Below, in pieces: positions 15,271 through 64,000 of a DNA stretch of 64,000 nt (the first letter of the stretch is position 1; every line of letters begins with the position of its first letter). The notes below the pieces were generated by a model. It was not told the DNA's origin, searched no databases, and saw only the letters and a list, made by a program, of their open reading frames with translations. Both the position numbers and the translations under genes were made by a program. The stretch comes from an uncultured virus (IMG/VR IMGVR_UViG_3300037418_000929). Its lineage: Duplodnaviria > Heunggongvirae > Uroviricota > Caudoviricetes. The stretch lies in the IMG/VR virus record IMGVR_UViG_3300037418_000929. One strand, 5' to 3'.

Positions 15271-15363
15271 GGAACGGAACGAGCGTTGAAAGCGTTTGTT
15301 CCAGCGTCAAGACGCGGACGCGGAAAAAACGTGCTTGACGTGCGCAGCGCAATGTGGCATGGG
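15271..15363 (+). promoter_or_regulatory. Late control region: EcfG-type promoter(s) and a sigma70-like -35
   Basis: GGAAC-N17-CGTT at 15271-15296; TTGACG at 15335-15340. Confidence 0.45.
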
Positions 15364-35339: not shown

Positions 35340-38300
35340 GTGAAGCCAATCCATATCCTGCGGACGCGGACGGCTCTTAGCACGGGCGTCGTTCCTACGA
35401 CCATCCTCTACGGGCGCACGGCAGGACATAGTTCTGGAACCACCTTCGATTACATCGTTGACAGCATCAACGGTGACGACACGACGGGCACCGGCTCTCT
35501 GGCAGCGCCGTTCAAAACCACGACCAAGGCGCACACGGTTGCCGTCGCGGCGGGCGGAAACAAGAAGATCGCGCTCAGGGGGCATCAGGGGCAAATCTAC
35601 ACCGCCGCGATCACCTGCACCACCAACGGGATCGAGTTCCACGGCTACGATACCGAACAGCCCAAGTGGCGCGGCTCCTATACCGTCACCGGGTTTGCAC
35701 AATGCACCGCCGGGGATGCTTCGGTCGTCGGCTCCAACTACGCGTCGATCTACAAAGCGACATTCGCGACCAGCAATCTTGCTTCTGGCGTTTCGTTCAA
35801 CAGCTTGCTTCCGCTTGAGAACGGCACTCCGCTCAACCTCGTCCAACTCCGGCACGACACGAGCGATCTGTATTTCCAGGACGCTATCGACGCCTTCTAT
35901 TCGTCAACGATCTATGGCGACAGCGTTACCATCGGGCTTGACGGATCGTCGCATCCCTCAACCGTCACCCATGCTGCCGTCCTCGGCAACGGAACGACGC
36001 CCTACACCGACGCGCAGCTCTCCAATTGCTCAATCATGCTCCACGCCTCTGCGAACAAGGCGCAGTTGGTCAAGGTCGCAACCAGTTCCAGCGGCGTTCT
36101 CACGCTCGCGGCGAACACGCTTACCAAGGAAACCGTTCGCGGCGATTGCTACGCGCTGCTGAACCTCCTTCCGGCGCTGTCTGTCGGCGAATACGGCGTG
36201 AAGGACAACGGCGACGGGACGTGGACGCTCTACATCTGGCCGAACAATCCAGCGAACCTCTCTGCGGGCGTACCGGTCGCATCTAAAAACACGATTCTCA
36301 AGTTCTCGCAGTCATCCAGCAACGCGGTTTCGAACATCGAGTTCGGGCACTGTGCGCACTCGGATACCACCGCCACGGTCGCCACTGTCGTTTTCGACCG
36401 CACCACAAATGGTTCTTTCAAGCAGAACACCGTCCAGTATTACAGCTACAAGGACTTCATCGGCAACGGCGGTGTGATCGTCGTCGGCGGGACCAGCAAT
36501 GTCATCCAATACAATGACATCAAGCAGGGCCAGAACGATTTCGGCGTGTTCTTCAACAACAGCAGCTATAGCCCGAGCGGCAATCGTTGCCTCAACAACT
36601 ACGCCTACCGGACCTCGCTGACCGCATGGCGGTTCTATGGTCAAGTCCTCATCGCGGCAGTCGATAATAAGGCTGAGAACTGCGGAACTGGCGGACACGC
36701 GAACAAGATCAATTTCTATCTCGGCTGTGACCAGGTTCTCTGCTGGCGCAACCTGTTTATCAATTGTGGCGGCTACATGACATGCCAGCAGTCCTCGCGG
36801 ATGCTGTTCGGCATGAACCTCGCCCCCGCCGATTCTGGAACAACCGATGCCCGCGCATTCGTTGACCAGACTGCGGATATTTCGCCCCCCGTCCCGACCA
36901 CCACCTCGAACAACGGGCTCATCAACAACGCTTTCCCGAAGCCTTCGGCCAATACTGGCGCGACGGGGCCGGACGCCCTCGTGGCGACCAATTCCAGCAC
37001 GCTCTACACAGTGAATTGGGAAATAGCGAACAACGCCGCGCACGGCATCCAATACAGTCATGTCGTCTCGACGCCGGACTACAATGTGCTGATGAGGGGC
37101 ACGGCCATCGGCGCGAACGATACCGTCGATACGAACTATGACGATCTGTTTTACGACTATACGAACGGCAACTGGAATACCGTTCCCGGCTCGATCCTGA
37201 CCACAAAGACGGGCAAGGACGAAAGCGCGTTTATTGCGACTTGGGAGACGTGGTTCCCCGACATCAATCTGCGCATGACGCTTAACGGCTACGCTTGGGA
37301 CCCGGCTGATCCCGGCGACGGGCCCTACGGCAAGCATTGGCCGGTCCAGGTCGACACCACCGCGCCGACGCTTTCGAGCCTCTCGGCGACGATCTCTGGG
37401 ACTTCCGCATCGGTCACGGTCACAACGAACGAGCGCGGCGGCACACTCTATTGGGTGCGTTATAACGGCGGCTCCGTTCCTTCTGGCGCGCAGGTTGTCG
37501 CCGGTCTGAACGGCGCTGGCGGCGCGGCGCTCTCGTCTGGTAATTTCGCGGTCTCCAATCCCGGCTCATTGGGGCCGTGGAGCGTCTCCGGAACAGCCGG
37601 CCAGACGGACACTCTCGCGGTCGTCCACAAGGATCGCAGCGGCAATATCTCCGCAGTCGTCACGACCCCGCTTGCCTTCGCGGCGTTCAGCGAAGTGTGG
37701 ACGAGCATGAACGGGACGAACTTCCCGCGTAAGTCGTCTGCGCTCACCGGATTCCAGACCACCACGCGCAAGATGATCGCGGCGATCACGCTCAGCCGGT
37801 CAGCGGCGCAGCTGGCGGTGGCGAGCAGCGGCGGCCTGATGTTTGCCAATGGCTCCTCGGACAGCGTTCCAACCTGGACATTGGGCGGGACGAGCAAGCT
37901 CCAGATTCTTCAAGAGAAGTCGGACAATACCGCGTTCGCCAATGTCATCGTGCCGCCCTCGACCAACATGGTCGCGGATACGCACTATCTCTTGCTGATC
38001 TGCTTTCAGTCGAACGGCACAAGCGCGACCCTCAACGGCACCATGTGGAACATTGCGACAGGCGTGCAGCTCGGAGGCACCGGCACGACGGGCGCGGTCT
38101 CTGGCGACATCAGCCTCGTGTTCAAGAACAATTACGACATCTTCAAGGGCGCTGCGACCTATGAGCGGTTCATGCTTTGGGATAATCCAAGCATCGCTTC
38201 GCCCGATGCGACAGATGCAACCCTGCGCGGCTATTTCATGTCCGGCGGCGCATTGCTCGATCCCGCCACGGCTGCGGCGAACATCGGCACTCCGTTGATT

Positions 38301-38384
38301 GATCTGCACGGCAGCGCTCTTGCCGTTGCTTCCGGGGCCACCGTTACGAACAACGGCTCCGGCGGCAACTTCACGATGGTTTAG
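35340..38384 (+). CDS. Second beta-helix receptor-binding/depolymerase-like protein
   Basis: VDSINGDDTTGTGSLAAPFKT, beta-helix repeats, C-terminal beta-sandwich. Confidence 0.8.
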   Translation: MKPIHILRTRTALSTGVVPTTILYGRTAGHSSGTTFDYIVDSINGDDTTGTGSLAAPFKTTTKAHTVAVAAGGNKKIALRGHQGQIYTAAITCTTNGIEFHGYDTEQPKWRGSYTVTGFAQCTAGDASVVGSNYASIYKATFATSNLASGVSFNSLLPLENGTPLNLVQLRHDTSDLYFQDAIDAFYSSTIYGDSVTIGLDGSSHPSTVTHAAVLGNGTTPYTDAQLSNCSIMLHASANKAQLVKVATSSSGVLTLAANTLTKETVRGDCYALLNLLPALSVGEYGVKDNGDGTWTLYIWPNNPANLSAGVPVASKNTILKFSQSSSNAVSNIEFGHCAHSDTTATVATVVFDRTTNGSFKQNTVQYYSYKDFIGNGGVIVVGGTSNVIQYNDIKQGQNDFGVFFNNSSYSPSGNRCLNNYAYRTSLTAWRFYGQVLIAAVDNKAENCGTGGHANKINFYLGCDQVLCWRNLFINCGGYMTCQQSSRMLFGMNLAPADSGTTDARAFVDQTADISPPVPTTTSNNGLINNAFPKPSANTGATGPDALVATNSSTLYTVNWEIANNAAHGIQYSHVVSTPDYNVLMRGTAIGANDTVDTNYDDLFYDYTNGNWNTVPGSILTTKTGKDESAFIATWETWFPDINLRMTLNGYAWDPADPGDGPYGKHWPVQVDTTAPTLSSLSATISGTSASVTVTTNERGGTLYWVRYNGGSVPSGAQVVAGLNGAGGAALSSGNFAVSNPGSLGPWSVSGTAGQTDTLAVVHKDRSGNISAVVTTPLAFAAFSEVWTSMNGTNFPRKSSALTGFQTTTRKMIAAITLSRSAAQLAVASSGGLMFANGSSDSVPTWTLGGTSKLQILQEKSDNTAFANVIVPPSTNMVADTHYLLLICFQSNGTSATLNGTMWNIATGVQLGGTGTTGAVSGDISLVFKNNYDIFKGAATYERFMLWDNPSIASPDATDATLRGYFMSGGALLDPATAAANIGTPLIDLHGSALAVASGATVTNNGSGGNFTMV

Positions 38385-39216: not shown

Positions 39217-39387
39217 ATGCACGATCACCGGATGCTCGACATCGGGACATGGTTCTTCGCCGGTATCGCGACATTGAGCTTCTGGCAGGGCGCGGCTCTC
39301 GCCGTCACTATTCTCGCGGGCCTTGCGTCGTTCGCGCTCGGCGTGATCCGCATCCATGATCGCTTTCGCTACGGGCCGCCGCGATGA
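39217..39387 (+). CDS. Holin-like membrane protein (56 aa, not in ORF track)
   Basis: MHDHRMLDIGTWFFAGIATLSFWQGAALAVTILAGLASFALGVIRIHDRFRYGPPR, upstream of the endolysin. Confidence 0.6.
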   Translation: MHDHRMLDIGTWFFAGIATLSFWQGAALAVTILAGLASFALGVIRIHDRFRYGPPR

Positions 39388-39488
39388 CCAAGGAGAAGAT
39401 CGCCCGCGCGCTGCGTCAAGTGTATCTTGACACTACTACAGAGCCCGTGCCCGCGAAGCTCAAGGCATTGCTCGCCAAGCTGCGTTAG
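39384..39488 (+). CDS. NepR-like anti-sigma factor peptide (34 aa, not in ORF track)
   Basis: MTKEKIARALRQVYLDTTTEPVPAKLKALLAKLR matches the NepR core ALRxxYxxxxxExVPxxhxxLLxKL; ATGA overlap. Confidence 0.7.
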   Translation: MTKEKIARALRQVYLDTTTEPVPAKLKALLAKLR

Positions 39489-39697
39489 GCGGGCGGCTTA
39501 GGCCAGTTCGCCATCTGCTCGCGAACGGACTCCACCAGCGATTTGCCGATCAGCTTCTCAGGGCCAACCCAATAGGTCCGCCCGTCAACATAGCGCGTCT
39601 CGCGGGCGAATTTGGGGTGCGCGCAGGCGGGCAATGGCCCTTCGCATTCGCCATAAATCAGCAGCTCCTCGAACCGCTTTTCATCAGTCGCCGACAT
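39485..39697 (-). CDS. Hypothetical protein (antisense, moron-like)
   Basis: 70-aa ORF with AT-rich upstream sequence. Confidence 0.5.
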   Translation of the reverse strand: MSATDEKRFEELLIYGECEGPLPACAHPKFARETRYVDGRTYWVGPEKLIGKSLVESVREQMANWPKPPA

Positions 39698-39912
39698 AAG
39701 CCGAGCATTAGCAGAAAACGGCCAAAAAGGAAATAGCTCCGGCTTTTCTGAGGATTGCGGGAGCGGGGGAAACCTGTCCGCAGGCCACGTACTTCGCCGG
39801 AGCCGATACCGAGCTAACCGGCCTCAGTCGCCATCAGCCGATCACCATGTCACGCGGGGAATACCCCTCCCGGTGACATCCTCTCAACGCGTTGATTCCT
39901 AAAGGGTTCCCG

Positions 39913-40353
39913 ATGGTGCCTAGCGCAACTTGCTTCGCCCTCATTCGCAAATCCGAGGGGCTGAGGCTCAAGGCATATCAGGACATGGGCGGGGTGTGGA
40001 CCGTGGGCTACGGCCATACCGGACCCGACGTAACGCCCAACAAGAAGATTACCGTCGATGAAGCGGAAACCCTGCTTCACAACGACGCCACGCACGCTTG
40101 CGACAGCGTTCTCCAGCTTACCGATGGGATCGTATCTCAAGGCCAACTCGATGCCCTGACCGATTTCGTTTTCAACCTTGGTGCATCGAAGCTCAAGAAC
40201 TCGACGCTGCTGCGGAAGCATCGGGCGGGCAACTATCCTGGAGCGGCGGCTGAGTTCGCCAAGTGGATTTACGCGGACGGGCGCATTGCCGAAGGGCTCA
40301 TCAAGCGCCGCGCCGCTGAGACGCATCTTTACCTATCGGATACTCTGCCGTGA
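39913..40353 (+). CDS. Endolysin, GH24 phage lysozyme
   Basis: SEGLRLKAYQDMGGVWTVGYGHT (E-8-D-5-T), FNLG, GLIKRRAAE. Confidence 0.95.
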   Translation: MVPSATCFALIRKSEGLRLKAYQDMGGVWTVGYGHTGPDVTPNKKITVDEAETLLHNDATHACDSVLQLTDGIVSQGQLDALTDFVFNLGASKLKNSTLLRKHRAGNYPGAAAEFAKWIYADGRIAEGLIKRRAAETHLYLSDTLP

Positions 40354-40526
40354 AGATCATCAACTACCTACGCCAGAGGCTTAACGAGCGCTCGACCTAT
40401 ATGTTTATCGTCGGCGCGATGGGATCGGTTTCCGTGCTTCCCGTGCCGTTCAACTGGATCGGGTTTTTGCTGCTGATGATTGCGGCGTTTGTGCCGGATG
40501 GACCAGCGGTTACGCCGGGGGCGTGA
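40350..40526 (+). CDS. Holin-like small membrane protein (58 aa, not in ORF track)
   Basis: YLRQRLNERSTY followed by two hydrophobic segments; GTGA overlap with the endolysin. Confidence 0.6.
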   Translation: MKIINYLRQRLNERSTYMFIVGAMGSVSVLPVPFNWIGFLLLMIAAFVPDGPAVTPGA

Positions 40527-40753: not shown

Positions 40754-41311
40754 ATGCTGCGCAGCTTTCTTGCGCTGTCGCTGGTCGTGCCAGCGCCGGC
40801 TGCGACATGGCTTGTCCCGCCCAAGGCGGTGGTTCAGGTCATCTGCCCCATGCCGGGCGGATGGAGCGCGGGAACGGCCTTTCGCGTCGGCAAGTATCTC
40901 CTCACCGTCAACCACGTCACCAAGCCGGGAACCTGCGAGATCGGCGGCGTTCCGGTGAAGGTTCTCTATGCCTCGCCGACAAAGGACTTCGCCATCCTCG
41001 CCGGGGACGAGGGGCCGTTCATTCCAGTGGACTGCGGCGGGTTCGTTCAGGGCAAGAAGTATCTGGCGATCGGTTACGCGCGCGGGCTTCCGTTTCAAAC
41101 CAAGGTCGAGCTGGTCGCGACCGGACAGAAGAGCGGGCAATTCTCGATCCTCAGAGGCGTCATCACGGTGATCCCCGGTCAGTCCGGCGGCCCCATCGTG
41201 GACGCTGATACTGGGCGCGTTGTCGGCACGGTCAACGTCTACAATTTCGAACAGGGGTGGAGCGGGTCCGTGGCGCTCGCCGACACGCCCATTTGCGCAG
41301 CGAAGGCATGA
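40754..41311 (+). CDS. Exported trypsin-like serine protease
   Basis: Signal-peptide-like N-terminus; GTAF, LTVNHV (His), DFAIL (Asp), PGQSGGP (Ser). Confidence 0.85.
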   Translation: MLRSFLALSLVVPAPAATWLVPPKAVVQVICPMPGGWSAGTAFRVGKYLLTVNHVTKPGTCEIGGVPVKVLYASPTKDFAILAGDEGPFIPVDCGGFVQGKKYLAIGYARGLPFQTKVELVATGQKSGQFSILRGVITVIPGQSGGPIVDADTGRVVGTVNVYNFEQGWSGSVALADTPICAAKA

Positions 41312-41527: not shown

Positions 41528-41902
41528 ATGACCTGGCTCGCGATTGGCGGATTCCTCAAGTCTCTCGCGTCGGGCATTGGCGCGTGGCTGTCGCGGCGCT
41601 CGCTTGCCGAGCTTGGCGTAATCGCGCTGGCGATCCTGTTCGTGATTCAGCACTTTGCCCTTGTGGATGCCCGACACGACGCGGCGAAATGGCAGAAGCA
41701 GTTCAACGCCGAACACGCGAAGCTCGAAGCGATCTCCTCAAAGCGCGATACGCAAAAGCAAACCACGGCAGAGAATGTGAAGGTGGTTACGCGCGTAATC
41801 CATGATGCGGACGGGCGGGCGAAAGTGGTGGAACAAGCGCCGATTCCGCCGACCGATTGCCACGGGGTTACACCGAGCGGGGTGCTTCAGGCGGACGTTT
41901 GA
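41528..41902 (+). CDS. Rz-like inner spanin
   Basis: N-terminal TM followed by coiled coil; lysis cassette position. Confidence 0.6.
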   Translation: MTWLAIGGFLKSLASGIGAWLSRRSLAELGVIALAILFVIQHFALVDARHDAAKWQKQFNAEHAKLEAISSKRDTQKQTTAENVKVVTRVIHDADGRAKVVEQAPIPPTDCHGVTPSGVLQADV

Positions 41903-42003
41903 AATCCGCTGGCCGCCCTCCCACCAGAGGGGACGGTGGTGGCCGCCATATCTGCGATTTGGACAATACAAACCGCCTCGGCCAGCGAAAGGATTGCGCT
42001 AGC

Positions 42004-42294
42004 ATGAAAAATGCGCTAGGTCAAATCCTGCGCGGTGGCTCTGCGAATGCAGCAAGCGCCGCGCTCTTTCTCGTCCTCACCGGCTGCGCGACAACCAGAT
42101 ACGCGCCCGTCTATTGCATCACCCGCGCCCAGCTCGAAGAACTGAAGCGCCAACAGCCACCCAAAGTCCACGACCAGCTCACAGGTAACGCAGACCGCGA
42201 CACGCAAATCCTCGCGGGAAACCTGATTAGAGTCCGCGCCTATTCGGACGGGTTGCTCACCGTGCTCGGGGGATGCGTGGACCCCGGCAAATGA
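42004..42294 (+). CDS. Rz1-like outer spanin lipoprotein
   Basis: LFLVLTGC lipobox. Confidence 0.65.
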   Translation: MKNALGQILRGGSANAASAALFLVLTGCATTRYAPVYCITRAQLEELKRQQPPKVHDQLTGNADRDTQILAGNLIRVRAYSDGLLTVLGGCVDPGK

Positions 42295-43764: not shown

Positions 43765-44106
43765 TCATCTTGAGCGATCGAGTAGGACGGTGATCGTGTC
43801 GAGCAGGGCGCGAATAACTTGTGACGACTCCTCGCATTCGAAGCGATTGCCTATCGCGGAGTCCAGCCAATAATGCATTCGATCGGCTGACTTATTCGCC
43901 CTCTCCACCAGCTCCTCGACATTGCTGAGGTCGGGGGTGGGGCGGGCGGCTTGCATGGCGGTGTAAATCGCGGCCACATGCTGCGCCTCAACGTCTGCCC
44001 GAGTGTCGCCGCAGTAGATGCCTCCATTGAGCGCGATGCGGCCCGCTTCGAGCATTTCGCGCGTGACGGGCTCACGGGATTGGTCTGAGGTTTGCTGGTC
44101 AGGCAT
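43765..44106 (-). CDS. Hypothetical protein spanning the repeat (5' part also at 1..123)
   Basis: MPDQQTS..EPVTREMLEAG...IYTAMQAARP. Confidence 0.65.
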   Translation of the reverse strand: MPDQQTSDQSREPVTREMLEAGRIALNGGIYCGDTRADVEAQHVAAIYTAMQAARPTPDLSNVEELVERANKSADRMHYWLDSAIGNRFECEESSQVIRALLDTITVLLDRSR

Positions 44107-44111
44107 GGTCA
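43984..44111 (+). repeat. Direct repeat, copy 2; phage 1/phage 2 junction
   Basis: Matches 1..128; base composition shifts immediately after it. Confidence 0.97.
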
Positions 44112-44216
44112 ATGTTCCCCGTTCTTCCCGTTTCTCGTTAGATACACAATCGCAAATACAGAGAAGATCAGCCACGCTATCGCAGCGATAACTGTTATCA
44201 CGTCTCTGTATTTCAT
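44109..44216 (-). CDS. Small TM peptide (35 aa)
   Basis: MKYRDVITVIAAIAWLIFSVFAIVYLTRNGKNGEH; its stop lies at the junction. Confidence 0.5.
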   Translation of the reverse strand: MKYRDVITVIAAIAWLIFSVFAIVYLTRNGKNGEH

Positions 44217-44425
44217 GTCTCTTCCTTCACCCAGTCCAAAACGTCCCGACGCATTTGATGAATACGACGAGAAACAAATATGTACTGATTCAACGCGTCT
44301 GTGTTGCAGCCGAACTTTTCAGTCAACTCGTAGAGCTTGTCCACCTGTAATCCGAGTGTTTCTAACTCGTAAGCTATGGATTGTAAGTCCATAGTGAGCA
44401 TGGAAATGCGTTCGTCTTTGTCCAT
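44213..44425 (-). CDS. Hypothetical early protein
   Basis: MDKDERISML..., GGGG RBS. Confidence 0.6.
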   Translation of the reverse strand: MDKDERISMLTMDLQSIAYELETLGLQVDKLYELTEKFGCNTDALNQYIFVSRRIHQMRRDVLDWVKEET

Positions 44426-44467
44426 CGTTACCCCCACACATGAGGCGCTTGCGCCGATTGGAGCGAA

Positions 44468-44690
44468 GCGACACAACTTAAACAGGCTGTCATGCGGAAT
44501 CGAACCGCCCAAAATCCTAAGCGCGCATCAACTAGGAAAGAACTAACAGCACGACCTGTACAATTCAGCCTAGTGTTTAGCCGCATAGCGAGAGCCGCCA
44601 ACCCAGTTACCGACGAAGCATTTCAGCCGCGTCAGCGCGGTGACAGCCTGTTGAAATTGTGTTGAGCCTTTTAGCCACTTGCTCAGGTGG
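44468..44690 (-). ncRNA. Candidate tRNA-like structured RNA
   Basis: ~24-bp closing stem (44641-44664 with 44469-44492), T-arm GCGG-TTCGATT-CCGC, small pseudoknot at the 5' end; no ORF. Confidence 0.45.
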
Positions 44691-44743
44691 TCAGCCGATA
44701 GCGGGGGAACGTGCTATCGACTTAGGGGCCTCGTTCGAACGCG

Positions 44744-45469
44744 TTAGCCAGCAACCGCCTCGGCAGTCGGGACTTCCGTTTCGGCTTCACTCTCGTTCTT
44801 CGCGATCGCCTTGAGAATGTCCGTGCTGTCGGCGATGAGTGCCTCAAGCCGAGCTTGATCGCGCTTCACTTCGTCGAGGTTCTCGGTGGCGGTCATCAGT
44901 GCGCCGAGCCGACGCAATCCGATAACGACTTCATCCGCGACCTTGCGCTGCTCGTCGTTTAGATCGAAGTACGGAACTTGCATCCCGTCGCCGCGATCCT
45001 TCGTACCTTTGAGCATCTTCGAGAGGCGGTCGCCGAACCGGAGCACGTTGTCTCCGACGTCGCCGATTGTGCCGGGCACGTAGTAGTCCCGAGGCGGACC
45101 TTGGAACCAATCGCCGTCTTCCGGACGGAACCACATGTTCGCCTTCGCACCGTCAACGTCACGCGGCCGGTAGTTCTTGCTGCGCTCGTCAACGTGCTTG
45201 GCATTGACAGCCGTGCCCTTCTGCATGTCGACACCGATTGCGCCGAAGTACCGAAGAAACTGCGTGGACCAACGCTTTTGCTCGGCGTTTGGGAGCGAGT
45301 TCACGAGATCGACTGCGAGAGTGCAATCGCCGTGCTCTGCGTCGTGTACGATGACAGCGACGAGAAGCACCTGAACGCGCTCGTGGACGTTGGCGACGAT
45401 ACCGCGAAGGTCCTTGATGCCCTTCTGGATTTCCGCCTTCGTCGGAGTGTTGAGATACTTTTCCTTCAT
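44744..45469 (-). CDS. Hypothetical early phage protein (HGD motif)
   Basis: GGAGAAG RBS; 241 aa; HDAEHGDCTLAVDLVNSL. Confidence 0.75.
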   Translation of the reverse strand: MKEKYLNTPTKAEIQKGIKDLRGIVANVHERVQVLLVAVIVHDAEHGDCTLAVDLVNSLPNAEQKRWSTQFLRYFGAIGVDMQKGTAVNAKHVDERSKNYRPRDVDGAKANMWFRPEDGDWFQGPPRDYYVPGTIGDVGDNVLRFGDRLSKMLKGTKDRGDGMQVPYFDLNDEQRKVADEVVIGLRRLGALMTATENLDEVKRDQARLEALIADSTDILKAIAKNESEAETEVPTAEAVAG

Positions 45470-45588
45470 ACTCACTTCTCCTGTATCCAATCGTTTAGCA
45501 CCTAGAGCTTGATTGCCCTAAGCTTGCGCGATTGGAAGGGCTAGGCGTGCCCCGAAAGTTCACCCGCACCTAGCCGTTTCAACCGTGC

Positions 45589-45705
45589 TTAGTGTCGAAC
45601 CCACCAGTCGTGGAACGCTTCGACGTCCTCCTTTACCATGTCGAACAGCACGCAGCCGAACAGCCACGCGCCGGACAAAATCATGATAGATTGAAACATG
45701 CACAT
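45589..45705 (-). CDS. Small membrane peptide
   Basis: GGAGG RBS; MCMFQSIMILSGAWLFGCVLF... Confidence 0.45.
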   Translation of the reverse strand: MCMFQSIMILSGAWLFGCVLFDMVKEDVEAFHDWWVRH

Positions 45706-45731
45706 AATGTCGCCTCCGGCTTAATCGCCGC

Positions 45732-45935
45732 TCATGCTACCATTTCCTCTTCTTCAGCCCACACGGCCTCGTCGTTGGCGAGAAACTTACCGTACATGAA
45801 ACGGGCCTTCGTGTCTGCTTGGACTTTGTTTACAGCCGAGATAATCCCGAGCCGGAACTTCTCGCCTCCGCTGCGCTTGTACACAGTGAAGCGCCTGTAG
45901 TTGCCCGACGTAGCGGGCGGAATGAAGAAAGACAT
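45732..45935 (-). CDS. Hypothetical early protein
   Basis: AAAGGAG RBS; MSFFIPPATSGNYRRF. Confidence 0.65.
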   Translation of the reverse strand: MSFFIPPATSGNYRRFTVYKRSGGEKFRLGIISAVNKVQADTKARFMYGKFLANDEAVWAEEEEMVA

Positions 45936-45959
45936 TGTATTCCCGCTCCTTTCGTTAGT

Positions 45960-46510
45960 AGCGTTGAGTAAGAGAGTGTTTCCTGCGGCTTGCAAGTGGT
46001 AACGTATCCCCGCTTTCGGTGAGCCTACGGTAGTTAATCCCCGTAGAACGAACACTCTCTAACACAAAGCTAATGCTTTGCTGCGGGGAATTGACTGGTT
46101 CCCTATTATCCCCTCTAGCTCGCCTAATCACTTAGGTTCGCCCGCTTGCTATTTCATTCACAAGCGCGAGACGCGTTCAGCCGAATTACTGCCCACTTAA
46201 GGGCATGGCGCGGGGTTTCTACATTGCTACCCTATCTGCTAGTGACGGCAGTTTATACAAACTCGCCGTTGCCTACTCACCGTTGCCAGCTTTCAGCATC
46301 GCAGCATTGGACAATGCTCCGAGCGCAATTCTTTCCATCCGCACTCCCAACGGGAGCCGATGCTTTCCCAACGGTTGTCAGCCGTGGTGCAAGGCTTTGG
46401 CCTCACTAACCGGATTAACGTACCGGCCTAAGACGTGGTGAGAGTTACAGCGCCGGGGCGTTTCGCCCTCACCTTGTCGTTTCTGCTATCTAGGCGTTTC
46501 AACGCGCCTT
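45960..46510 (-). ncRNA. Candidate large structured RNA
   Basis: ~550 nt with no credible ORF and a dense run of hairpins. Confidence 0.4.
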
Positions 46511-46511
46511 T

Positions 46512-46982
46512 TCAAGCCTTCTTTTTGAACGGCCCTTTGAAGGCCGCTCGCTGGCAGTTAGGCAACGCTGTGGCGTAGCGCTCTTTGGCATAGCTTGCGC
46601 TCACCTTTTCCCCTTGCAAAGCGTAGGGATCGTGATTGAACGCTGAGTGAGCACGCTTGCCCGGTTTCCCGTGCTTGCCTACTTCCTCTTTCGCTACGTC
46701 AAACAACGCCTTGCCGTTGGCTCCACGGCTGGAAAAGCCTTCAAGCCAACCCTTCGCGTTACTACGCAAACCCATTTGCTTGGGTTCACGCTTGCGGAAA
46801 GAAAGCAACGCCCGCTCTTGAGCCGATAGGTTGTCGCCTTTCAGCAACTCGGCCCGCAACCTTGCGTCCTTCAAGGCTTCCTTCACTATCTGTTGCTTGC
46901 GAATAATCGCCCGCGACAGCAGCAAGTCGGCCTTGGCCTCTTTCCGCTCCAAGGCGCGCTTGCGCCGTTGATAGCGGTTCAT
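46512..46982 (-). CDS. Basic hypothetical early protein
   Basis: AAAGGTGA RBS; K/R-rich. Confidence 0.65.
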   Translation of the reverse strand: MNRYQRRKRALERKEAKADLLLSRAIIRKQQIVKEALKDARLRAELLKGDNLSAQERALLSFRKREPKQMGLRSNAKGWLEGFSSRGANGKALFDVAKEEVGKHGKPGKRAHSAFNHDPYALQGEKVSASYAKERYATALPNCQRAAFKGPFKKKA

Positions 46983-47141
46983 TGTATCACCTTTCCATTT
47001 TACAGTAATACCAATTAACGCAATCCTGCCATGCGTCTAGGACGCGCCCAAACAGCACTTCAATGATTGCCTCAATCATATCACTGTCCCTAATGGGCGG
47101 TAAGCCAGCCGAAACCGGCTCACCTAGTGAATTGTCGTTTC

Positions 47142-47170
47142 CCTCTAGAGAAAGCCCTAGAGGCTGTCAA
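47142..47170 (-). promoter_or_regulatory. Early sigma70-like promoter
   Basis: TTGACA-17 bp-TAGAGG, overlapping palindrome CCTCTAG..CTAGAGG. Confidence 0.5.
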
Positions 47171-47630
47171 GTGGTCTAGCTTCGCACTGGAACGTAGCAC
47201 GCTCCGTAGCTTGGCCTTCCGAAATGACAACGCCCTTAGACCACAGATCGTTGCGAGGGGCAATGGCACTGAATACGTATTCATTAGGATACAATGTTAC
47301 ATCAACTGGCACGGTATTTGCTACGCGAGCGCGGGTTCCTTCTCTCCTAGAGGCATGGGCTGATAACGAGTTGCAGTAGCCGCCCACCCGTTCCCTCGCC
47401 TAGACTAGCCTGCTAATGCGAAGCACAAGCATTAGAGGATGTAACCTATAGGTGACACTGTTGTTTATCTGCAACACTGTGACCTTCCCGCAACACAGGA
47501 CGCGTAGCGGTGTGTTAGTACAGCAGGACAGGGGGTCCCCGGGGGAGGGGTACCGGGGGGAGGGGTGAAGTCGAGATGCAGTTCGGGCGGCACCAGCTGT
47601 ACTCTCAGACTAGATAAAAAATCAAAATAA

Positions 47631-47664
47631 TAAAAAAGGCCCCTTGACGAATGCCAAGGCGGCC
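47631..47664 (-). terminator. Intrinsic terminator
   Basis: GGCCGCCTTGG/TCAAGGGGCC stem followed by TTTTTTA. Confidence 0.65.
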
Positions 47665-47879
47665 CCACACTAACCAAGAATGAATTAACTAATTAACAGA
47701 TTGTACGTAAGCAAAGACACGGCCGAGGGATTCACCCTTCGGGTCTGGACACCGGCCCCTAGTCTCTCCGAGCAAACTCTGCCCTCGGGACTCTATATCG
47801 GTCCTATCCCTTCGGATCGGGCCCTATATAAGGGTGTATCTATTAGAGTATATAGTTTACCGCCTGCAACCAATAAGGT

Positions 47880-47985
47880 ATTATAACATATTCAGCACAC
47901 TTTGTCAAGCAAAATCGTACAAAATGAAAATAAAGTTACCAAAATGCATTTTTTACTTGACATTCACCCTGAAATATGTTATAAT
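47880..47985. promoter_or_regulatory. Back-to-back consensus sigma70 promoters
   Basis: Minus: TTGACA (47908-47903)-17-TATAAT (47885-47880); plus: TTGACA (47957-62)-17-TATAAT (47980-85); both have an extended -10 TG. Confidence 0.9.
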
Positions 47986-48007
47986 ATGTGTATAAGGTGC
48001 AAAGAAA

Positions 48008-48259
48008 GTGGATTTAAAGAACGAAAGAGAGAGCAAGAACTTCGTAGACCACACGACGTACCTGAACCAAATGCTCAACAAACTGGACACGCGGGACAAG
48101 ATGATGTTCTGGCGAATGATGCACCAGTCAGACGACGACAACTACATCTCCCACATCACCAATCCAAACGTTGAGCCGGGTGCTCCCCAACTTGAACAGC
48201 CTCAGAGTACCACAGACTTTCTCAACAGTATCCTTCTTCACCTAATGACTGGTAAATAG
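48008..48259 (+). CDS. Hypothetical protein
   Basis: First ORF after the rightward promoter. Confidence 0.55.
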   Translation: MDLKNERESKNFVDHTTYLNQMLNKLDTRDKMMFWRMMHQSDDDNYISHITNPNVEPGAPQLEQPQSTTDFLNSILLHLMTGK

Positions 48260-48537
48260 TGGCTAAGAACTCAGGACAGACTAAAGCAGCTAGGGCCGCT
48301 TCTCAGGCCAAGTACAACTCCAAGCCAGAACAAGTCAAGCGCAGAGAGCAGCGCAATCGAGCCAGAGCCAAGCTAATCAAAGAAGGCAAGGCGAGAAAAG
48401 GTGACGGCAAAGACGTCGATCACATTTCCGGCCTAGCGGGGGGAAACCAAGACAGCAACCTCCGAGTTCTGAGTAAGTCAGTTAACAGACACTACAACCG
48501 AAGGTCCAAGAAGACCAAAGCCCCTAAGAAACTTTAA
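48259..48537 (+). CDS. HNH endonuclease-like protein
   Basis: GDGKDVDH...GGN..SNLRV....NR; near the terminase genes. Confidence 0.8.
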   Translation: MAKNSGQTKAARAASQAKYNSKPEQVKRREQRNRARAKLIKEGKARKGDGKDVDHISGLAGGNQDSNLRVLSKSVNRHYNRRSKKTKAPKKL

Positions 48538-48538
48538 C

Positions 48539-48826
48539 GTGCCAGCCATTCTCGAACGCCTAGTTAGCCAGCTCAAGGCTAAAGGATACAATGACCGATC
48601 TGCCCACGCTATTGCGGTTGCTGCCCTCCAGCGTAGTGGAAACCTTAAGCCCGGAACAGAGGAGGCAACTCCTAAAGGCGTTGAGCGTGGGAGGATGTCT
48701 CCCGGTGATCGAGCCAAAGACAGAGCCGCTAAGCGGTCCGGTCGATCTACAAGAGATTTTAAGTACGATCCTAGGACAAATAGAGCCACACTTAAACGAC
48801 GAAAGACCCGACGAAAACGAAAATGA
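48539..48826 (+). CDS. Hypothetical basic protein
   Basis: MPAILERLVSQLKAKG... Confidence 0.65.
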   Translation: MPAILERLVSQLKAKGYNDRSAHAIAVAALQRSGNLKPGTEEATPKGVERGRMSPGDRAKDRAAKRSGRSTRDFKYDPRTNRATLKRRKTRRKRK

Positions 48827-49329
48827 AGCCGAGTGAACAGGAAAAAGAAGCTTTCGAAAAGCTAACCGAAAAGCAAAAGGCTTTTGTAGAAGAGTACCTA
48901 ATCGACTACAACGGTTCGGCTGCCGTTCTTCGTGCCGGGTTCGACACCGCCCACCCTAAGAAAATCGCATACCAGCTCCTCCGCCACCAGAACGTAAAGG
49001 CTTATCTCGACTTCAGGGCGGACGAACGAGCTAAAAAGAGTAACCTCAAGCCGGACTACGTAATCAAGAAGGTAGTCAAGGCAATCGAAGAAGCAGACCG
49101 AGACGGTAAGCCAGCTATTGTACTGAAGGGGTGTGAACTCCTCGCTAGGCACCTCGGAATGTTCATAGACAGACAGGAAATCAGCGGTCCCAACGGCGAC
49201 CCAATCAAGTATGAGCAAGTCAAAGAAGCGGCAGACGCTTTCACCAGCGCAATTTCTAGCCTCATTGAGCGAGGCGGAGAGGGACCAACACCTTTCGAAA
49301 TTGAGCCTTCAGGAGAGGGCACACCTTAA
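48823..49329 (+). CDS. terS: Terminase small subunit
   Basis: LTEKQKAFVEEYLIDYNGSAAVLRAGF...ELLARHLGMF. Confidence 0.92.
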   Translation: MKPSEQEKEAFEKLTEKQKAFVEEYLIDYNGSAAVLRAGFDTAHPKKIAYQLLRHQNVKAYLDFRADERAKKSNLKPDYVIKKVVKAIEEADRDGKPAIVLKGCELLARHLGMFIDRQEISGPNGDPIKYEQVKEAADAFTSAISSLIERGGEGPTPFEIEPSGEGTP

Positions 49330-50638
49330 ACACCACTGGCCCTTTTGGGCTAGGCCAGATCAGCTGGAGCCAGAAGGAGACTGGAACACGTGGTTGATTC
49401 TGGCAGGACGCGGTTGGGGTAAAACCCGAGTAGGCTCCGAGTGGGTCAGGGACATAGCCAAGCGTTATCCCGGCTGTAGAATTGCTCTAGTAGGTGAAAC
49501 CGCAGCCGACGCCCGAAAGGTTATGATCACGGGTGACAGCGGTATCCTGAGTATTTCCCCGCCCGACTTCATGCCGGAGTACTTCCCGACCAACAGGCAG
49601 CTCCGCTGGCCCAACGGTTCAATTGCAGAAACGTACAACGCAACTCAGCCCGACCAGCTCCGTGGTCCTCAGCATCACTTCGCGTGGTGCGACGAGATCG
49701 CCAAGTGGGAGCACATGAAAGACAGTTGGGACCAGCTTCAGTTCGGTCTCCGCTTGGGTGACAAGCCACGCTGCCTAGTGACTACGACGCCTCGTCCGCT
49801 GCCTTTGATTCGGCAAATGCTCAACGACCCCGACACGTTCGTAACTCGCGGGGCCACGCTGGACAACAAAGACAACCTAGCCGAAAGCACGGTTAAGTTC
49901 TTGTACGAGCGATACGCAGGTACGCGACTCGGTAGACAGGAACTCGACGGAGAAGTCCTCGACGACATCCCCGGAGCGCTTTGGTCCCGCACCAAGCTAG
50001 ACGAAACCAGAGTACGGAAAGCACCGGAACAGCTTGATCGAATTATCGTGGCAGTTGATCCTGCCGCTTCCTCTGAAGAACACAGCGACGAAACAGGTAT
50101 TGTTTGTGTCGGACTTGCAAAGGATGCAGACGGCTTTAACCGTGGCTACGTACTTGCGGACCGATCCATTCGAGGAACTCCTGAGGAGTGGGCTAAAGCA
50201 GCCGTTGCACTGTACAGAGAGTTTGAAGCGGATCGCATCATCGCAGAAAAGAATCAAGGAGGAGAAATGGTGGAAGCCGTCCTCCGAGCCGTGGATCGCA
50301 ACGTACCAGTCACCCTCGTTACAGCAACACGAGGAAAGCTTGTTCGAGCTGAACCAGTTTCCGCTCTTTACGAGCAAGGAAGAGTACACCACGTAGGTAG
50401 TTTCAATGAACTTGAAGACCAAATGTGTACGTTTAGTCAGGATTACGACCGAGCCAACGGCTCTCCTGATCGGATGGACGCTCTTGTTTGGGGCCTTAGT
50501 TATCTTTTTGAAAGGATGACGGCCCGCCGACGCCCTCACGAAAAGGACGTCGAACCCAGTTACAATCTCCGGGAGTACAACCCAAACGACCACGACGTCT
50601 ATCGTGGAAAAACTGACACGAGTTGGATGGTTGGCTAA
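49211..50638 (+). CDS. terL: Terminase large subunit
   Basis: AGRGWGKT, LRGPQ..WCDE, TTTP, VAVDPA, SPDRMDA. Confidence 0.95.
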   Translation: MSKSKKRQTLSPAQFLASLSEAERDQHLSKLSLQERAHLKHHWPFWARPDQLEPEGDWNTWLILAGRGWGKTRVGSEWVRDIAKRYPGCRIALVGETAADARKVMITGDSGILSISPPDFMPEYFPTNRQLRWPNGSIAETYNATQPDQLRGPQHHFAWCDEIAKWEHMKDSWDQLQFGLRLGDKPRCLVTTTPRPLPLIRQMLNDPDTFVTRGATLDNKDNLAESTVKFLYERYAGTRLGRQELDGEVLDDIPGALWSRTKLDETRVRKAPEQLDRIIVAVDPAASSEEHSDETGIVCVGLAKDADGFNRGYVLADRSIRGTPEEWAKAAVALYREFEADRIIAEKNQGGEMVEAVLRAVDRNVPVTLVTATRGKLVRAEPVSALYEQGRVHHVGSFNELEDQMCTFSQDYDRANGSPDRMDALVWGLSYLFERMTARRRPHEKDVEPSYNLREYNPNDHDVYRGKTDTSWMVG

Positions 50639-50821
50639 GTACGTTGCACGAAGAATCCGATCAGACGAAGACGATCCAGGTGATTTCTGGTGGGAAGACA
50701 TGCCAATGTCCCACGTACCCTACGTTGATGATTCGGCACTTGAGCCCACAGGTCTCGTCGACGCTGAAGGTATTCCTTTGTGGAGGCTGCCTAATCCGAT
50801 TGGTTTCGGTCGAAAGCTTGA

Positions 50822-53062
50822 ATGGTAAAGAAGACTAACAAAGAATCCGACGTTAACATCGACGTTTCGTCCTTGAAGCTGCCCGACCCTGACGTCGCGG
50901 CAGTTCCTTCGTCGTATGCGCCTGAGGGTTTCAAAGACGCTCAGGAGTATCTGGACGATCTCCGCGAGACGTACGAACTCGATCTTCAGTACGACGACGA
51001 CAACCGCAAGGCTGCGCTGGAGGACATGAAGTTCGTAGCAGGAGAGCAGTGGGAACCCCACGTTCTTCAACAGCGTCAAGGGCTGCCTTGCCTAGTAATT
51101 AACTCCATTCCCCAGTTTACGGCTCAGCTGACAGGCGACTGGCGAGAGAACCGAACAGGCATTAAGGTTCTTCCGGCTGAAGGTGGTGACAAGAACGTCG
51201 CAGACGTACGCTCCGATCTCATCCGTTCCATCGAAACTAAATCTCGCGCTGACAGAGTTTACACGTCAGCCTTCGAGTCGATGGTTCAGTGTGGAGACGG
51301 GGCGTTTCGTGTAGCAGTTCAGTACGCAAACGACGACACGTGGGATCAAGACATCCTGCTCGGACAGATTGACGACCCTCTTTCGGTTGTTTGGGACAGA
51401 CTCAGCATCGACCCGACCGGCAGGGACGCGTCTCACTGCTTCGTAGACGACATCATTCCGCAGAAGGAATTCAAAAAGCGTTGGCCTGACACGAAGATTG
51501 CTTCGCTAGGCAACACCGAAAAGCGTTCTCTATACGCTACCGGTTGGATGGATGACAAAACCGTCCGAGTCACCGAACACTGGCGAATGGTTGAGCGCAA
51601 GCGTCTCCTCGTCATGTTTGAAGACGGGACGATTTACCCGTTCGACGAAGGCGCAGAGTCCGAGTACGAAGGCTACATCCAAAAGCACGGCAAGCCGGTT
51701 AAGTCCCGGTTGTCCCCGTGTAGGTACGCTCAGATGCACCTCGTCACTGGGTTCGACATTCTTGCAGGCCCGTTCGAATGGAAGCTGGACAGGCTTCCGA
51801 TTGTTCGAATGTCGGGCAGAACCGTAACCGTTGGTGATCGCCGCGTCCGGTACGGCCTCGTCCGTTACATGAAAGACGCCGCAAGACTCCGTAATTTCTG
51901 GCGATCAGTCGCAGCGGAGCAACTGGGTTACGCACCCAAGGCTCAGTGGATTGGCCCTGAGAGTGCGTTCGAAGGACGTGAAGACGCGTGGAGAAAAGCC
52001 CACAAGATTCGCGATCCTCTTCTGATTTACAACGATGACGCACAGGCTCCGCCGGAACGCGTTGATCCTCCTGTGATGCAGACTGCCCTCCTCAACGAGG
52101 CGCAGATCAACACGCAGGACATGAAGGACATCACAGGAATCCACGATGCTTCACTCGGTATTAAGAGCAATGAAACGTCTGGCAAAGCTATTATGGCCCG
52201 ACAGCGAGAGGGTGACGTTGCTTCTCTGGCTTATTACGATAATGGTAATGCTGCTATCCTTGAGGCCGGAGATGTCATCAATCAGCTCATTGGTCAGATT
52301 TATGACGGCACCCGCATTGTTCGCATTATCGGTGAAGATGAGTCTGCTAAGCTCGTAACCATCAACGACGACAACAACCCTGATTCGCCCAATCTCGCAA
52401 TCGGAAAGTACGACGTGGCAATCACCACGGGTGCTTCGTACACGACCCGAAGGGTTGAGGCCGCTCAGGCCATGATGGACGCCATTCAGGTGTTCCCGGA
52501 ACTGATGCAGGTTGCTGGAGACATCATAGTCAAGGCGCAGGATTGGCCGGGTGCTGACGAACTAGCCGAACGACTTCAAAAGACTGTTCCCCCGCAGCTG
52601 CTCTCCGATAAGGAGAAAGCTGAAATGGGAGAGCAAGGCCCTGACGTCAACGCAATCATGCAGCAACAGGCTCAAGTCCAAGAGCAAATGCAGCAGGCCA
52701 TGCAGGAGCTACAGCAGCTTCAGCAGGAAAACCAGACCTTGAAGGTTAAGGCTGCTGCCAAGGACAAGGAGCTTGAAATTAAGGAGTACGAGGCTGAAAC
52801 AGCCCGACTCGCTGCTTACGCTCAGATTCTCGCCAAGGGCGACGAACTAGAAATCAAACGACTGGAGCAGGAAGCTCACCTTCAGATGGAGGCAGAGCAA
52901 GGCGAACACGACCGCACAATGGACGTGGCTAACGCAATCCAGACTGACAACCATTTCCAGCAAGGTCAGCAAAATCAGCAGGCAATGCAGGACAACCAGC
53001 TACAAGCTCAGAAAGAGCAAGCAGCTTCGACCGCGAAGGCTTCAACCCCACCTTCCGAATAA
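50822..53062 (+). CDS. Portal protein (P22 gp1-like)
   Basis: GEQW...PCLVIN...SNETSGKAI.ARQ...GKYDV.I.TGASY.TRR; Q-rich barrel. Confidence 0.93.
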   Translation: MVKKTNKESDVNIDVSSLKLPDPDVAAVPSSYAPEGFKDAQEYLDDLRETYELDLQYDDDNRKAALEDMKFVAGEQWEPHVLQQRQGLPCLVINSIPQFTAQLTGDWRENRTGIKVLPAEGGDKNVADVRSDLIRSIETKSRADRVYTSAFESMVQCGDGAFRVAVQYANDDTWDQDILLGQIDDPLSVVWDRLSIDPTGRDASHCFVDDIIPQKEFKKRWPDTKIASLGNTEKRSLYATGWMDDKTVRVTEHWRMVERKRLLVMFEDGTIYPFDEGAESEYEGYIQKHGKPVKSRLSPCRYAQMHLVTGFDILAGPFEWKLDRLPIVRMSGRTVTVGDRRVRYGLVRYMKDAARLRNFWRSVAAEQLGYAPKAQWIGPESAFEGREDAWRKAHKIRDPLLIYNDDAQAPPERVDPPVMQTALLNEAQINTQDMKDITGIHDASLGIKSNETSGKAIMARQREGDVASLAYYDNGNAAILEAGDVINQLIGQIYDGTRIVRIIGEDESAKLVTINDDNNPDSPNLAIGKYDVAITTGASYTTRRVEAAQAMMDAIQVFPELMQVAGDIIVKAQDWPGADELAERLQKTVPPQLLSDKEKAEMGEQGPDVNAIMQQQAQVQEQMQQAMQELQQLQQENQTLKVKAAAKDKELEIKEYEAETARLAAYAQILAKGDELEIKRLEQEAHLQMEAEQGEHDRTMDVANAIQTDNHFQQGQQNQQAMQDNQLQAQKEQAASTAKASTPPSE

Positions 53063-53097
53063 GTCGCAACCGGGGACGTACCGAAAGGACGCCTTAA

Positions 53098-54126
53098 TTG
53101 ACTACTGACGACAACAGTAATTCAGAAAATCTTGTCGATATGGACGACCTCAACGCTTTTGAGGACGAGTTCTTCCAGCGGGAAAAGCCCGTTGACAAGG
53201 AGGACACGTCTGAAGAAGTTGACGAGGAAGTCTCTGAGGACGAGGATGATCCCCTCGCAGCAGAAGAGGACACAGATGCCCCGGCAGAGACCGGGGATGA
53301 GGACGAAGTAGAGGAAGAGGACGACTCCGAAGAGGAGGAAGAGCCTCAGCCGAAACCGAAGCCAAAGTCAAAGGCTCAGCAAAGGATTGAAAAGCTCCTA
53401 GAGCGTGAGAGGCTAGCTAACGAACGGGCTAACACCCTTGAACAGCGGCTGGCTGCACTAGAGGCTCGAAACACAAAAGAGGAACCACGTGAAGAGCAGG
53501 CTCCTGCCCTCCGTGATCAGCTTCCCGCTGACGCTCCTAATCCAGACGCCAAGGACAAAGACGGTAATCCGCTCTATCCCCTAGGCGAGTTTGATCCTCA
53601 GTTCATTCGTGACTTCACACAGTTCACGATTGACGAACAAATGAAGATCAAACAGGAAAAGGAACAGCGAGAAGCCCAAGAACGAATGGTAGCCGAACAG
53701 CGTAGTGCGATCCAGAACAACTGGCACACGAAACTGGAGGCGGCTGAAGAGGAAATCCCCGACATTCGAGAGAGTATCTCGGACCTAGTGGACACTTTTC
53801 AGAACGTCGAACCGGCTTACGGTGAATACTTGGCATCTGTGATCATGGCGAGCGATCTCGGCCCGCAACTCATGTACTACCTCTCTCAAAATATCGGCGA
53901 GGCCCAGAAAATCGTTGCCTCTGGACCTGCTGCTGCCACTCTTGCCCTCGGACGGTTGGAAGCCCGACTGACTCCGCAGAGTAAATCAGAGAAGCGCAAC
54001 ACCAAGAGAGAGTCCGAAGCTCCTCGTCCGCCCGAAGCCCGCACTCGCGGTGCCGGAGGTCGGTTCTCGATCAGCCCGGACACTGATGATCTAGATGCCT
54101 TCGAACGAGAATTCTTCAAGAAGTAA
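53098..54126 (+). CDS. Scaffolding protein
   Basis: Acidic N-terminus, AQQRIEKL, GPQLMYYL; precedes the capsid gene. Confidence 0.8.
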   Translation: MTTDDNSNSENLVDMDDLNAFEDEFFQREKPVDKEDTSEEVDEEVSEDEDDPLAAEEDTDAPAETGDEDEVEEEDDSEEEEEPQPKPKPKSKAQQRIEKLLERERLANERANTLEQRLAALEARNTKEEPREEQAPALRDQLPADAPNPDAKDKDGNPLYPLGEFDPQFIRDFTQFTIDEQMKIKQEKEQREAQERMVAEQRSAIQNNWHTKLEAAEEEIPDIRESISDLVDTFQNVEPAYGEYLASVIMASDLGPQLMYYLSQNIGEAQKIVASGPAAATLALGRLEARLTPQSKSEKRNTKRESEAPRPPEARTRGAGGRFSISPDTDDLDAFEREFFKK

Positions 54127-54178
54127 CTCATCGTCGCGAAGGTCACTTTTCAAACGATAGAAAGGACTACTGTAGCTA

Positions 54179-55471: not shown

Positions 55472-55478
55472 GTTTGAC

Positions 55479-55512
55479 TGGGAGGGGTTCTGTTCCGGGG
55501 CCCCTCCCTTTC
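55479..55512 (+). terminator. Terminator after the capsid gene
   Basis: GGGAGGGGTTC/GGGCCCCTCCC followed by TTTT. Confidence 0.7.
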
Positions 55513-55545
55513 ATTCACTAATAGTATTTTCTTGGAGACGTTATT

Positions 55546-55803
55546 TTGAAAGTTCGTGAACTTTATCGTCCGAAGCGAATGGCCGCCTCAGGAACGCTGG
55601 TTGCAATCGGCGGTGCAGTGGGCGGCTTTCTCTGTACCACAGGCGGCACAATTCAAATCACCGCTGGTGAAGCCTCCGGCGGTTCTGACATTGTTTCGTC
55701 CATCACGGTGACTGCTGGTCAGTTCTACCCGATGGGCTTTTTCTGTGAAACCGGTGCCTACGCAGTTCTAGGCGGGGGCGCAGTTGGGACGTTCTTGGTC
55801 TAA
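55546..55803 (+). CDS. Small beta-rich virion protein
   Basis: GGAG RBS, TTG start, Gly-rich. Confidence 0.6.
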   Translation: MKVRELYRPKRMAASGTLVAIGGAVGGFLCTTGGTIQITAGEASGGSDIVSSITVTAGQFYPMGFFCETGAYAVLGGGAVGTFLV

Positions 55804-55807
55804 AAGA

Positions 55808-58837: not shown

Positions 58838-58849
58838 GGAGTTTTACGT

Positions 58850-60730: not shown

Positions 60731-60733
60731 CAA

Positions 60734-61486: not shown

Positions 61487-61492
61487 CTAACC

Positions 61493-63510: not shown

Positions 63511-63536
63511 AGGTTGAAACCAGAAAAGACTGGGAC

Positions 63537-63953: not shown

Positions 63954-64000
63954 TTTCCTTTTCGGAGGAAGTCAGCAAAAGCAGAAGAGTACGAACACCA

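Follow-up and report, generated by a model that had tools for sequence, protein, structure and literature searches.

A core-only NepR-family peptide encoded by a tailed phage at the junction of its late structural and lysis genes

The general stress response of Alphaproteobacteria is controlled by a switch composed of PhyR, NepR and sigma-EcfG, where NepR is the anti-sigma factor. In cellular NepR (PF18557; structures 3t0y, 4qic and 5uxx) two helices, alpha1 and alpha2, are joined by a linker to form a core. Phages also encode small proteins that act on host sigma factors: the phage anti-sigma factors, T4 AsiA among them, bind the housekeeping sigma factor of the host and are not known to be homologous to host anti-sigma factors. 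Other small, soluble phage proteins are antiholins, such as RIII of phage T4 and LydB of phage P1, each encoded beside a holin gene. A protein directed against a general stress sigma factor is found in phage T7, where, according to the portion of the preprint used here, the small protein Gp5.7 inhibits the E. coli sigma-S holoenzyme via region 4 of the sigma factor (bioRxiv 10.1101/262279).

The role of the segments that surround the NepR core was addressed by Herrou, Willett and Crosson 2015 (PMC4551977), and the sections of that study used here describe disordered flanks as invariable in cellular orthologues. These flanks are required for interaction with full-length PhyR~P, i.e., the core alone showed no binding by SPR and a reduced two-hybrid signal, while the 4-residue linker between the helices is essential for partner binding (PMC4551977). 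An engineered Caulobacter core of 32 residues (NepR-SV, Q31-E62) binds sigma-T with 1:1 stoichiometry and also binds the isolated sigma-like domain of PhyR, but not PhyR~P; the complex of NepR-SV is less stable and the same sections report that it failed to repress sigma-T transcription in vivo (PMC4551977). In Sphingopyxis, an additional NepR paralogue was proposed to counteract the response, both through the sigma factors and by titration of PhyR (PMC9303464).

Here, we describe a natural counterpart of such a core, a 34-residue peptide referred to below as mini-NepR. The analysed stretch of DNA, called the window, comprises 64,000 nucleotides of an uncultured virus (IMGVR_UViG_3300037418_000929). 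Positions 1-44118 are a complete phage genome bounded by a 135-nt direct terminal repeat, and positions 44119-64000 hold about 20 kb of an unrelated, P22-like phage (terminase, P22 portal and P22 coat); the G+C content is about 61% in the former and about 52% in the latter. A viral record of 44,091 bases with direct terminal repeats, rated 100% complete, is identical to the window in the aligned stretch, which spans the mini-NepR ORF. Pfam searches identified a tyrosine integrase, NinB, an ERF recombinase and two DNA methylases, and 1-44118 also encodes an SU10-type terminase, portal, capsid and adaptor as well as long tail-fibre proteins. The features that define the ends and the putative integration site are as follows:

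1-135, second copy at 43984-44118: direct terminal repeat, copies 97% identical
3756-3789, plus strand: putative attP core; the 3' end of an alphaproteobacterial tRNA-Pro(CGG) has the same 34 nt
4045-5019, minus strand: tyrosine integrase (Pfam Phage_integrase, E 8.6e-19)

The 34 nt of the attP core are the last of a tRNA-like fragment (3728-3789) that adjoins the integrase gene, and a 29-nt part of this core was found, with at most one mismatch, in 61 of 401 sampled alphaproteobacterial genomes (0 with a reversed-pattern control). The segment is likely a typical attP, and the phage is, as judged from this site and the integrase, temperate. An exact 50-mer beside attP gave 0 matches in metagenome contigs. 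DNA of the region was found in nine soil or rhizosphere metagenome runs. That the host harbors PhyR-NepR-EcfG we infer from the restriction of NepR to Alphaproteobacteria together with the tRNA-Pro attP. The exact mini-NepR and the portal are found also on a contig of 92,805 bases, about twice the phage length, which might represent an integrated phage or a concatemer. Beside the two DNA methylase genes, a protein of 120 residues (12973-13335) consists of the C-terminal DNA-binding domain of DnaA alone (Bac_DnaA_C, E 4.6e-22).

The mini-NepR gene is found in the late region of the genome, between a tail-fibre gene and the endolysin gene, in agreement with the location in a lysis region given in the preliminary description of this DNA. 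The genes of this region are:

35340-38384, plus strand: tail-fibre-like protein of 1014 residues, the last large late gene ahead of the module
39217-39387, plus strand: TM56, a holin-like membrane protein of 56 residues with two hydrophobic segments and a basic tail
39384-39488, plus strand: mini-NepR, a member of the NepR family consisting of alpha1, a 4-residue linker and alpha2, and nothing else
39485-39697, minus strand: ORF of 70 residues, convergent with mini-NepR with overlapping stop codons, no Pfam or PHROG match
39892-40353, plus strand: endolysin, a GH24-type phage lysozyme (Phage_lysozyme, E 1.2e-40; PHROG 7 endolysin, E 1.2e-51)
40350-40526, plus strand: membrane protein of 58 residues, second holin candidate, coupled to the endolysin stop
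40754-41311, plus strand: trypsin-like peptidase (Pfam Trypsin_2, E 2e-9; PHROG protease), conserved in relatives
41528-42294, plus strand: overlapping pair of candidate spanins, i.e., a protein of 124 residues with an N-terminal membrane anchor and a frame of 145 residues with an LTGC lipobox-like site

The 34 codons of mini-NepR begin with an ATG that shares the tetranucleotide ATGA with the stop codon of the 56-residue ORF, which gives an overlap of 4 nt; this arrangement and the exact peptide had been noted previously and were both recovered. The earlier assignment of the peptide to the NepR family, for which a search with a family HMM had been suggested, is borne out by the Pfam NepR model PF18557, which matches with 35.6 bits (E 6.9e-9; gathering score 25.7) and aligns residues 4-34 with model positions 2-32 of 35. 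As a control for chance, an HMM was made from 16 cellular Sphingomonadales NepRs, including zero phage sequences, and was searched against every stop-to-stop frame in the whole window that encodes 20 or more residues (1,704 frames). The mini-NepR frame was the sole match (E 1.7e-8, 31.4 bits; runner-up, E 1.4), which excludes a post hoc choice among many small ORFs.

Comparison with experimentally determined structures led to the same family. In a phmmer search of the PDB (E<=10), the three matches were all NepR chains, 5uxx_B (E 0.0065), 4qic_B (E 0.01) and 3t0y_B (E 0.82), which align without gaps with residues 4-33 of mini-NepR (identity 15/30 for 5uxx_B). A profile of 16 phage-type peptides aligned by hhalign with that of the 16 cellular NepRs over 30 gapless columns (probability 97.7%, E 2.4e-12), and a more diverged phage subtype of 51 residues reached a probability of 92.1%. 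The core of mini-NepR is 39-50% identical to the homologous cores of cellular NepRs, and the positions conserved in the phage peptides are those conserved in cellular NepR. No NCBIfam model matched mini-NepR at E<=10, including NF051865 (anti-sigma T factor NepR, equivalog); because cellular Sphingomonadales NepRs also reach only 23.6 bits with this model, whose cut-off is 100, or fail to match it, the negative result carries little weight. PHROGs and NCBIfam alike yielded no match for mini-NepR or its small neighbours. On sequence grounds, mini-NepR is thereby confirmed as a genuine ORF and a member of the NepR family.

What distinguishes mini-NepR from its cellular homologues is the lack of disordered flanks. 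The Pfam core occupies residues 4-34 of 34, whereas each of the 16 cellular NepRs extends beyond its core, by roughly 10-50 residues on the N-terminal side, by a tail on the C-terminal side, or on both sides (their start codons being uncertain). The lack of a long disordered N-terminus had been recognized earlier; the C-terminal flank is missing as well. An AF2 model obtained with 16 family members (mean pLDDT 88.7) predicts a helix at residues 3-19, the linker E-P-V-P at 20-23 and a second helix at 24-33, i.e., the two helices and 4-residue linker that define NepR, and the linker aligns with the E-P-V-P of 3t0y_B. Foldseek found 0 matches to the 34-residue model in the PDB, as expected at such a short length. 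The boundaries of mini-NepR are nearly identical to those of NepR-SV as described in the sections of PMC4551977 used here; both comprise the core helices only. However, NepR-SV is a laboratory truncation that, in the same account, lost its anti-sigma activity in vivo, whereas phages maintain their version as a natural, conserved gene family.

A survey of phages for nepR-like ORFs, suggested in the preliminary description, showed that the ORF is conserved. The module, in which a membrane ORF overlaps a NepR-like ORF, was found in 15 further contigs, 13 viral and two from metagenomes. With the endolysin as a query, 80 viral loci were fetched, of which six besides the phage itself harbor a NepR-like ORF just 5' of the endolysin gene; with TM56 as a query, all four non-self loci have a NepR-like ORF just 3' of the TM56 homologue, and a query with the family alignment added three viral and two metagenome contigs (the latter being the real ones among five metagenome loci, the other three being partial matches in unrelated large ORFs). 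Most of these carrier contigs bear record names with similar prefixes, so that they may be non-independent samples. A protein search identified 12 unnamed proteins of 34-46 residues. The PF18557 cut-off was passed also by L009, L116 and L117 and by 7/11 other short proteins scanned; below it are the module members L004 (20.2 bits), L118 (20.5), L003 (14.1) and L005 (13.7), and the model did not match the NepR-like ORFs of L115 and L007.

The coupling itself is invariable: stop and start codons overlap in 16/16 loci (the phage itself included), by 4 nt in 14 and by 8 nt in two. The ORF that overlaps the NepR-like start has membrane segments in 15 of these loci; in L117 there is an extra ORF between. 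The membrane partners belong to at least three sequence families, and one NepR subtype pairs with all three. The module usually follows a tail-fibre gene and precedes the lysis genes, and it is found directly 5' of the endolysin gene in L003, L005, L007, L008 and L009. An SU10-type capsid gene is found in only 2/5 carrier records of at least 90% completeness, which indicates that the module moves between phage backbones; the capsid genes of some carriers are unrelated. The dN/dS ratios of the four closest pairs are 0.09, 0.28, 0.24 and 0.30, values that indicate purifying selection on the NepR-like ORF in close pairs; more distant pairs are saturated. In two relatives (L011, 2771-3013; L025, around 2684-2998) the ORF coupled to the TM56 homologue is longer, about 80-100 residues, and only its N-terminus is weakly NepR-like (12 bits in L011, none in L025); these ORFs may represent the family in a decayed or an extended state.

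A phmmer search with mini-NepR among 1.84 billion representatives returned only the query itself, with no close relative of the window variant; neither tblastn with mini-NepR, P0012 or S. deserti NepR nor megablast with the lysis region found a match among 50,697 deposited phage genomes. Among 32 endolysin-related loci in bacterial genomes, neither a NepR-like ORF nor a TM56 homologue was present. A search of viral contigs with a strict motif pattern of the cellular NepR type found 0 matches; a phage-type pattern gave 30, real only in two contigs already known.

The short length of the ORF and the lack of a close relative of its own subtype could be taken to mean that mini-NepR is a piece of a host nepR that was captured and has no function, or that the ORF arose by chance. 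We give this reading almost no credence, in view of the unique significant HMM match in the window, the occurrence of the coupled module in 15 other contigs with different phage backbones and the purifying selection in close pairs. A chance ORF, specifically, was rejected on the HMM uniqueness, dN/dS and conserved coupling. A phage-borne, core-only NepR is real and conserved; the family is known, while the flankless phage form appears to be new. That it is natural and conserved implies a function, perhaps exerted by a higher dosage, an altered affinity or a membrane partner.

Also in terms of gene context, mini-NepR differs from cellular NepR. It is encoded beside membrane-protein and lysis genes, its neighbours being the membrane ORF, the 70-residue ORF (85% identical to a homologue in L118) and the endolysin gene, rather than ecfG or phyR, to which cellular nepR is linked (L119 and L120 serve as contrast cases). 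A Pfam scan of 53 ORFs of the window revealed no sigma factor or PhyR. The large tail-fibre-like protein ahead of the module shares 71% identity with the product of an L118 gene. Homologues of TM56 are located directly 5' of the NepR-like ORFs in L007, L008, L009, L011 and L115-L118, and a sample of 401 genomes from the order to which G002 belongs contained none. Class II holins are typically small, with two membrane segments and a charged C-terminal tail, and are encoded in the lysis cassette. Pfam and PHROG searches gave no family matches for TM56, hence no holin family, while the nearest Atlas cluster with a family points to Phage_holin_2_2 (26% of members, score 0.88), which is a lead only. 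From its shape, its position and this single weak lead, TM56 is a candidate holin. The 58-residue membrane protein has homologues 3' of the endolysin gene in L011, L022, L025, L135, L138 and L118. The candidate spanins are proposed from their architecture, with the LTGC site called by what we take to be the lipobox consensus. A trypsin-like serine peptidase is kept in the lysis cassette of many relatives and is an unusual cargo for the interval between endolysin and spanin.

The genetic setting suggests an alternative in which mini-NepR is a lysis-timing regulator, the NepR-like helices acting as a cytoplasmic antiholin or accessory on the coupled holin-like protein. In a variant, the sigma factor or PhyR might compete as a ligand, such that host stress would shift the time of lysis. 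Such a role would fit with the invariable overlap with a small membrane ORF, with the five loci in which the module directly precedes the endolysin gene, and with the existence of small cytoplasmic antiholins (T4 RIII and P1 LydB), to which, however, mini-NepR has no sequence relation. We nevertheless consider it unlikely: at least three partner families are combined with one NepR subtype, which argues against a specific, co-evolved interface, and the conserved positions match those of cellular NepR. Furthermore, a second holin candidate is encoded 3' of the endolysin gene, and the holin role of TM56 is only putative. Shuffling of one NepR subtype among three membrane families fits better with a conserved host target than with a specific membrane partner.

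Regulatory sequences were searched for around the module. The EcfG-type motif GGAAC..CGTT, behind which cellular nepR is often found, was absent upstream of the phage module in 13/13 loci, and for this reason we rejected autoregulation of the kind seen in cellular nepR operons, which would be driven by an EcfG promoter. A search for sigma-70-type promoters found none, and the sole terminator-like site is distant from the module. One occurrence of GGAAC-N16-CGTT, which we take to be the EcfG-type promoter consensus, is located near mini-NepR:

39886-39910, minus strand: GGAAC-N16-CGTT motif in the intergenic gap, directed toward the 70-residue ORF and antisense to mini-NepR, a lead only

Nine such motifs were observed in the window, against 2.6 expected. 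In three of 13 loci (39886-39910 of the window, L118 around 3516 and L138 around 4192, all on the minus strand) a motif is found downstream of mini-NepR and points back toward it; these sites might mark stress-dependent antisense transcription. A palindrome, GGAAC...GTTCC, at 15271-15302 fits the EcfG-type motif on both strands. It is located ahead of the packaging genes, in a gap with few ORFs, and may have a regulatory role.

From the data discussed above, we propose a model in which the natural core-only NepR binds sigma-EcfG in a way that PhyR~P does not undo and damps the general stress response, and we give this model as a whole about an even chance of being correct. The carrier would be a temperate tailed phage of a soil or rhizosphere alphaproteobacterium. 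Mini-NepR would be translated by coupling to the holin-like membrane protein, at the point where the late structural genes give way to the lysis cassette. Both helices and the E-P-V-P linker would then bind the sigma-EcfG of the host in the manner of cellular NepR, and the added anti-sigma capacity would damp the general stress response as the phage cycle ends. Because cellular NepR needs its flanks for PhyR~P, mini-NepR, which is devoid of them, is predicted to be resistant to the host switch, i.e., PhyR~P should not pull it off the sigma factor. We infer the sigma target, the direction of the effect, the insensitivity to PhyR and the late timing. As for the timing, the preliminary description had left the choice between infection and lysogeny. 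Judged from the gene order, mini-NepR looks like a late lytic product made together with the lysis genes; the first of the two settings is retained, as late lytic infection, while a role as a lysogeny gene is not. Since it is always made with the holin-like protein, the phage probably disturbs the host stress response late in infection.

T7 Gp5.7 is, by analogy, a functional precedent for the silencing of a general stress sigma factor by a phage (bioRxiv 10.1101/262279), even if the two proteins are unrelated in fold and origin, the host is of another class and Gp5.7 is no copy of a host anti-sigma factor. The main evidence against the model comes from NepR-SV, which binds sigma-T without repressing it, i.e., binding need not inhibit. 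Sequestration of EcfG, as suggested in the preliminary description, is for these reasons plausible rather than assured.

The same observation made with the core-only Caulobacter NepR could be read in the opposite direction, in that mini-NepR would occupy sigma-EcfG without blocking it, or displace the host NepR, and thereby raise the stress response, for example to the benefit of a lysogen. The phage is equipped with an integrase and an attP, in line with such a benefit. This competitor role appears improbable to us, because the truncated NepR is less stably bound than the full-length protein and should lose to the host NepR; in addition, the position of the gene points to late lytic expression and the promoter searches gave no support for expression in lysogens. 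A further reading, also put forward in the preliminary description, is titration of PhyR, where mini-NepR would soak up the phosphorylated form of this anti-anti-sigma factor. NepR paralogues vary in their partner preference, and Sphingopyxis NepR2 was proposed to be a PhyR titrator in the part of the source considered (PMC9303464). However, the flanks that are missing from mini-NepR are, in the sections of PMC4551977 used here, those required for binding of full-length PhyR~P, and the core-only Caulobacter NepR, also without flanks, did not bind PhyR~P; we therefore disfavour titration and regard it as quite improbable.

The model of direct action on sigma-EcfG leaves the invariable coupling to a membrane protein unexplained. 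This coupling would be accounted for by a two-piece, membrane-tethered anti-sigma device, in which mini-NepR docks on sigma-EcfG as well as on the tail that the holin-like protein has in the cytoplasm, an arrangement that we consider distinctly unlikely. One of two outcomes would follow: sigma-EcfG may be sequestered at the membrane, with the tether replacing the missing flanks, or free sigma-EcfG may strip the antiholin from the holin, in which case host stress would set the lysis time. If true, either outcome would constitute a phage device that links the general stress state of the host to lysis.

A full-text literature search for NepR or PhyR in combination with phage or prophage found no relevant paper on phage NepR. 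If mini-NepR acts on sigma-EcfG, it is the first phage-borne piece of the PhyR-NepR-EcfG switch found in the searches made here. The family also offers a natural experiment on a published puzzle, i.e., the engineered core binds without inhibiting, yet phages select such a core, and it provides a handle on the role of the general stress response during phage infection. If active, the peptide would be a small tool to switch this response in plant-associated and soil alphaproteobacteria.

An observation on the cellular side concerns a NepR at L146 (1492-1650), which has a near-zero N-terminal extension and a C-terminal tail of 16 residues; the ORF beside it occupies the usual position of phyR. 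Among the cellular proteins, this NepR has the top or joint-top similarity to 7/16 phage-type peptides, with a core identity of 42-50%, and it may be near the source of the phage gene.
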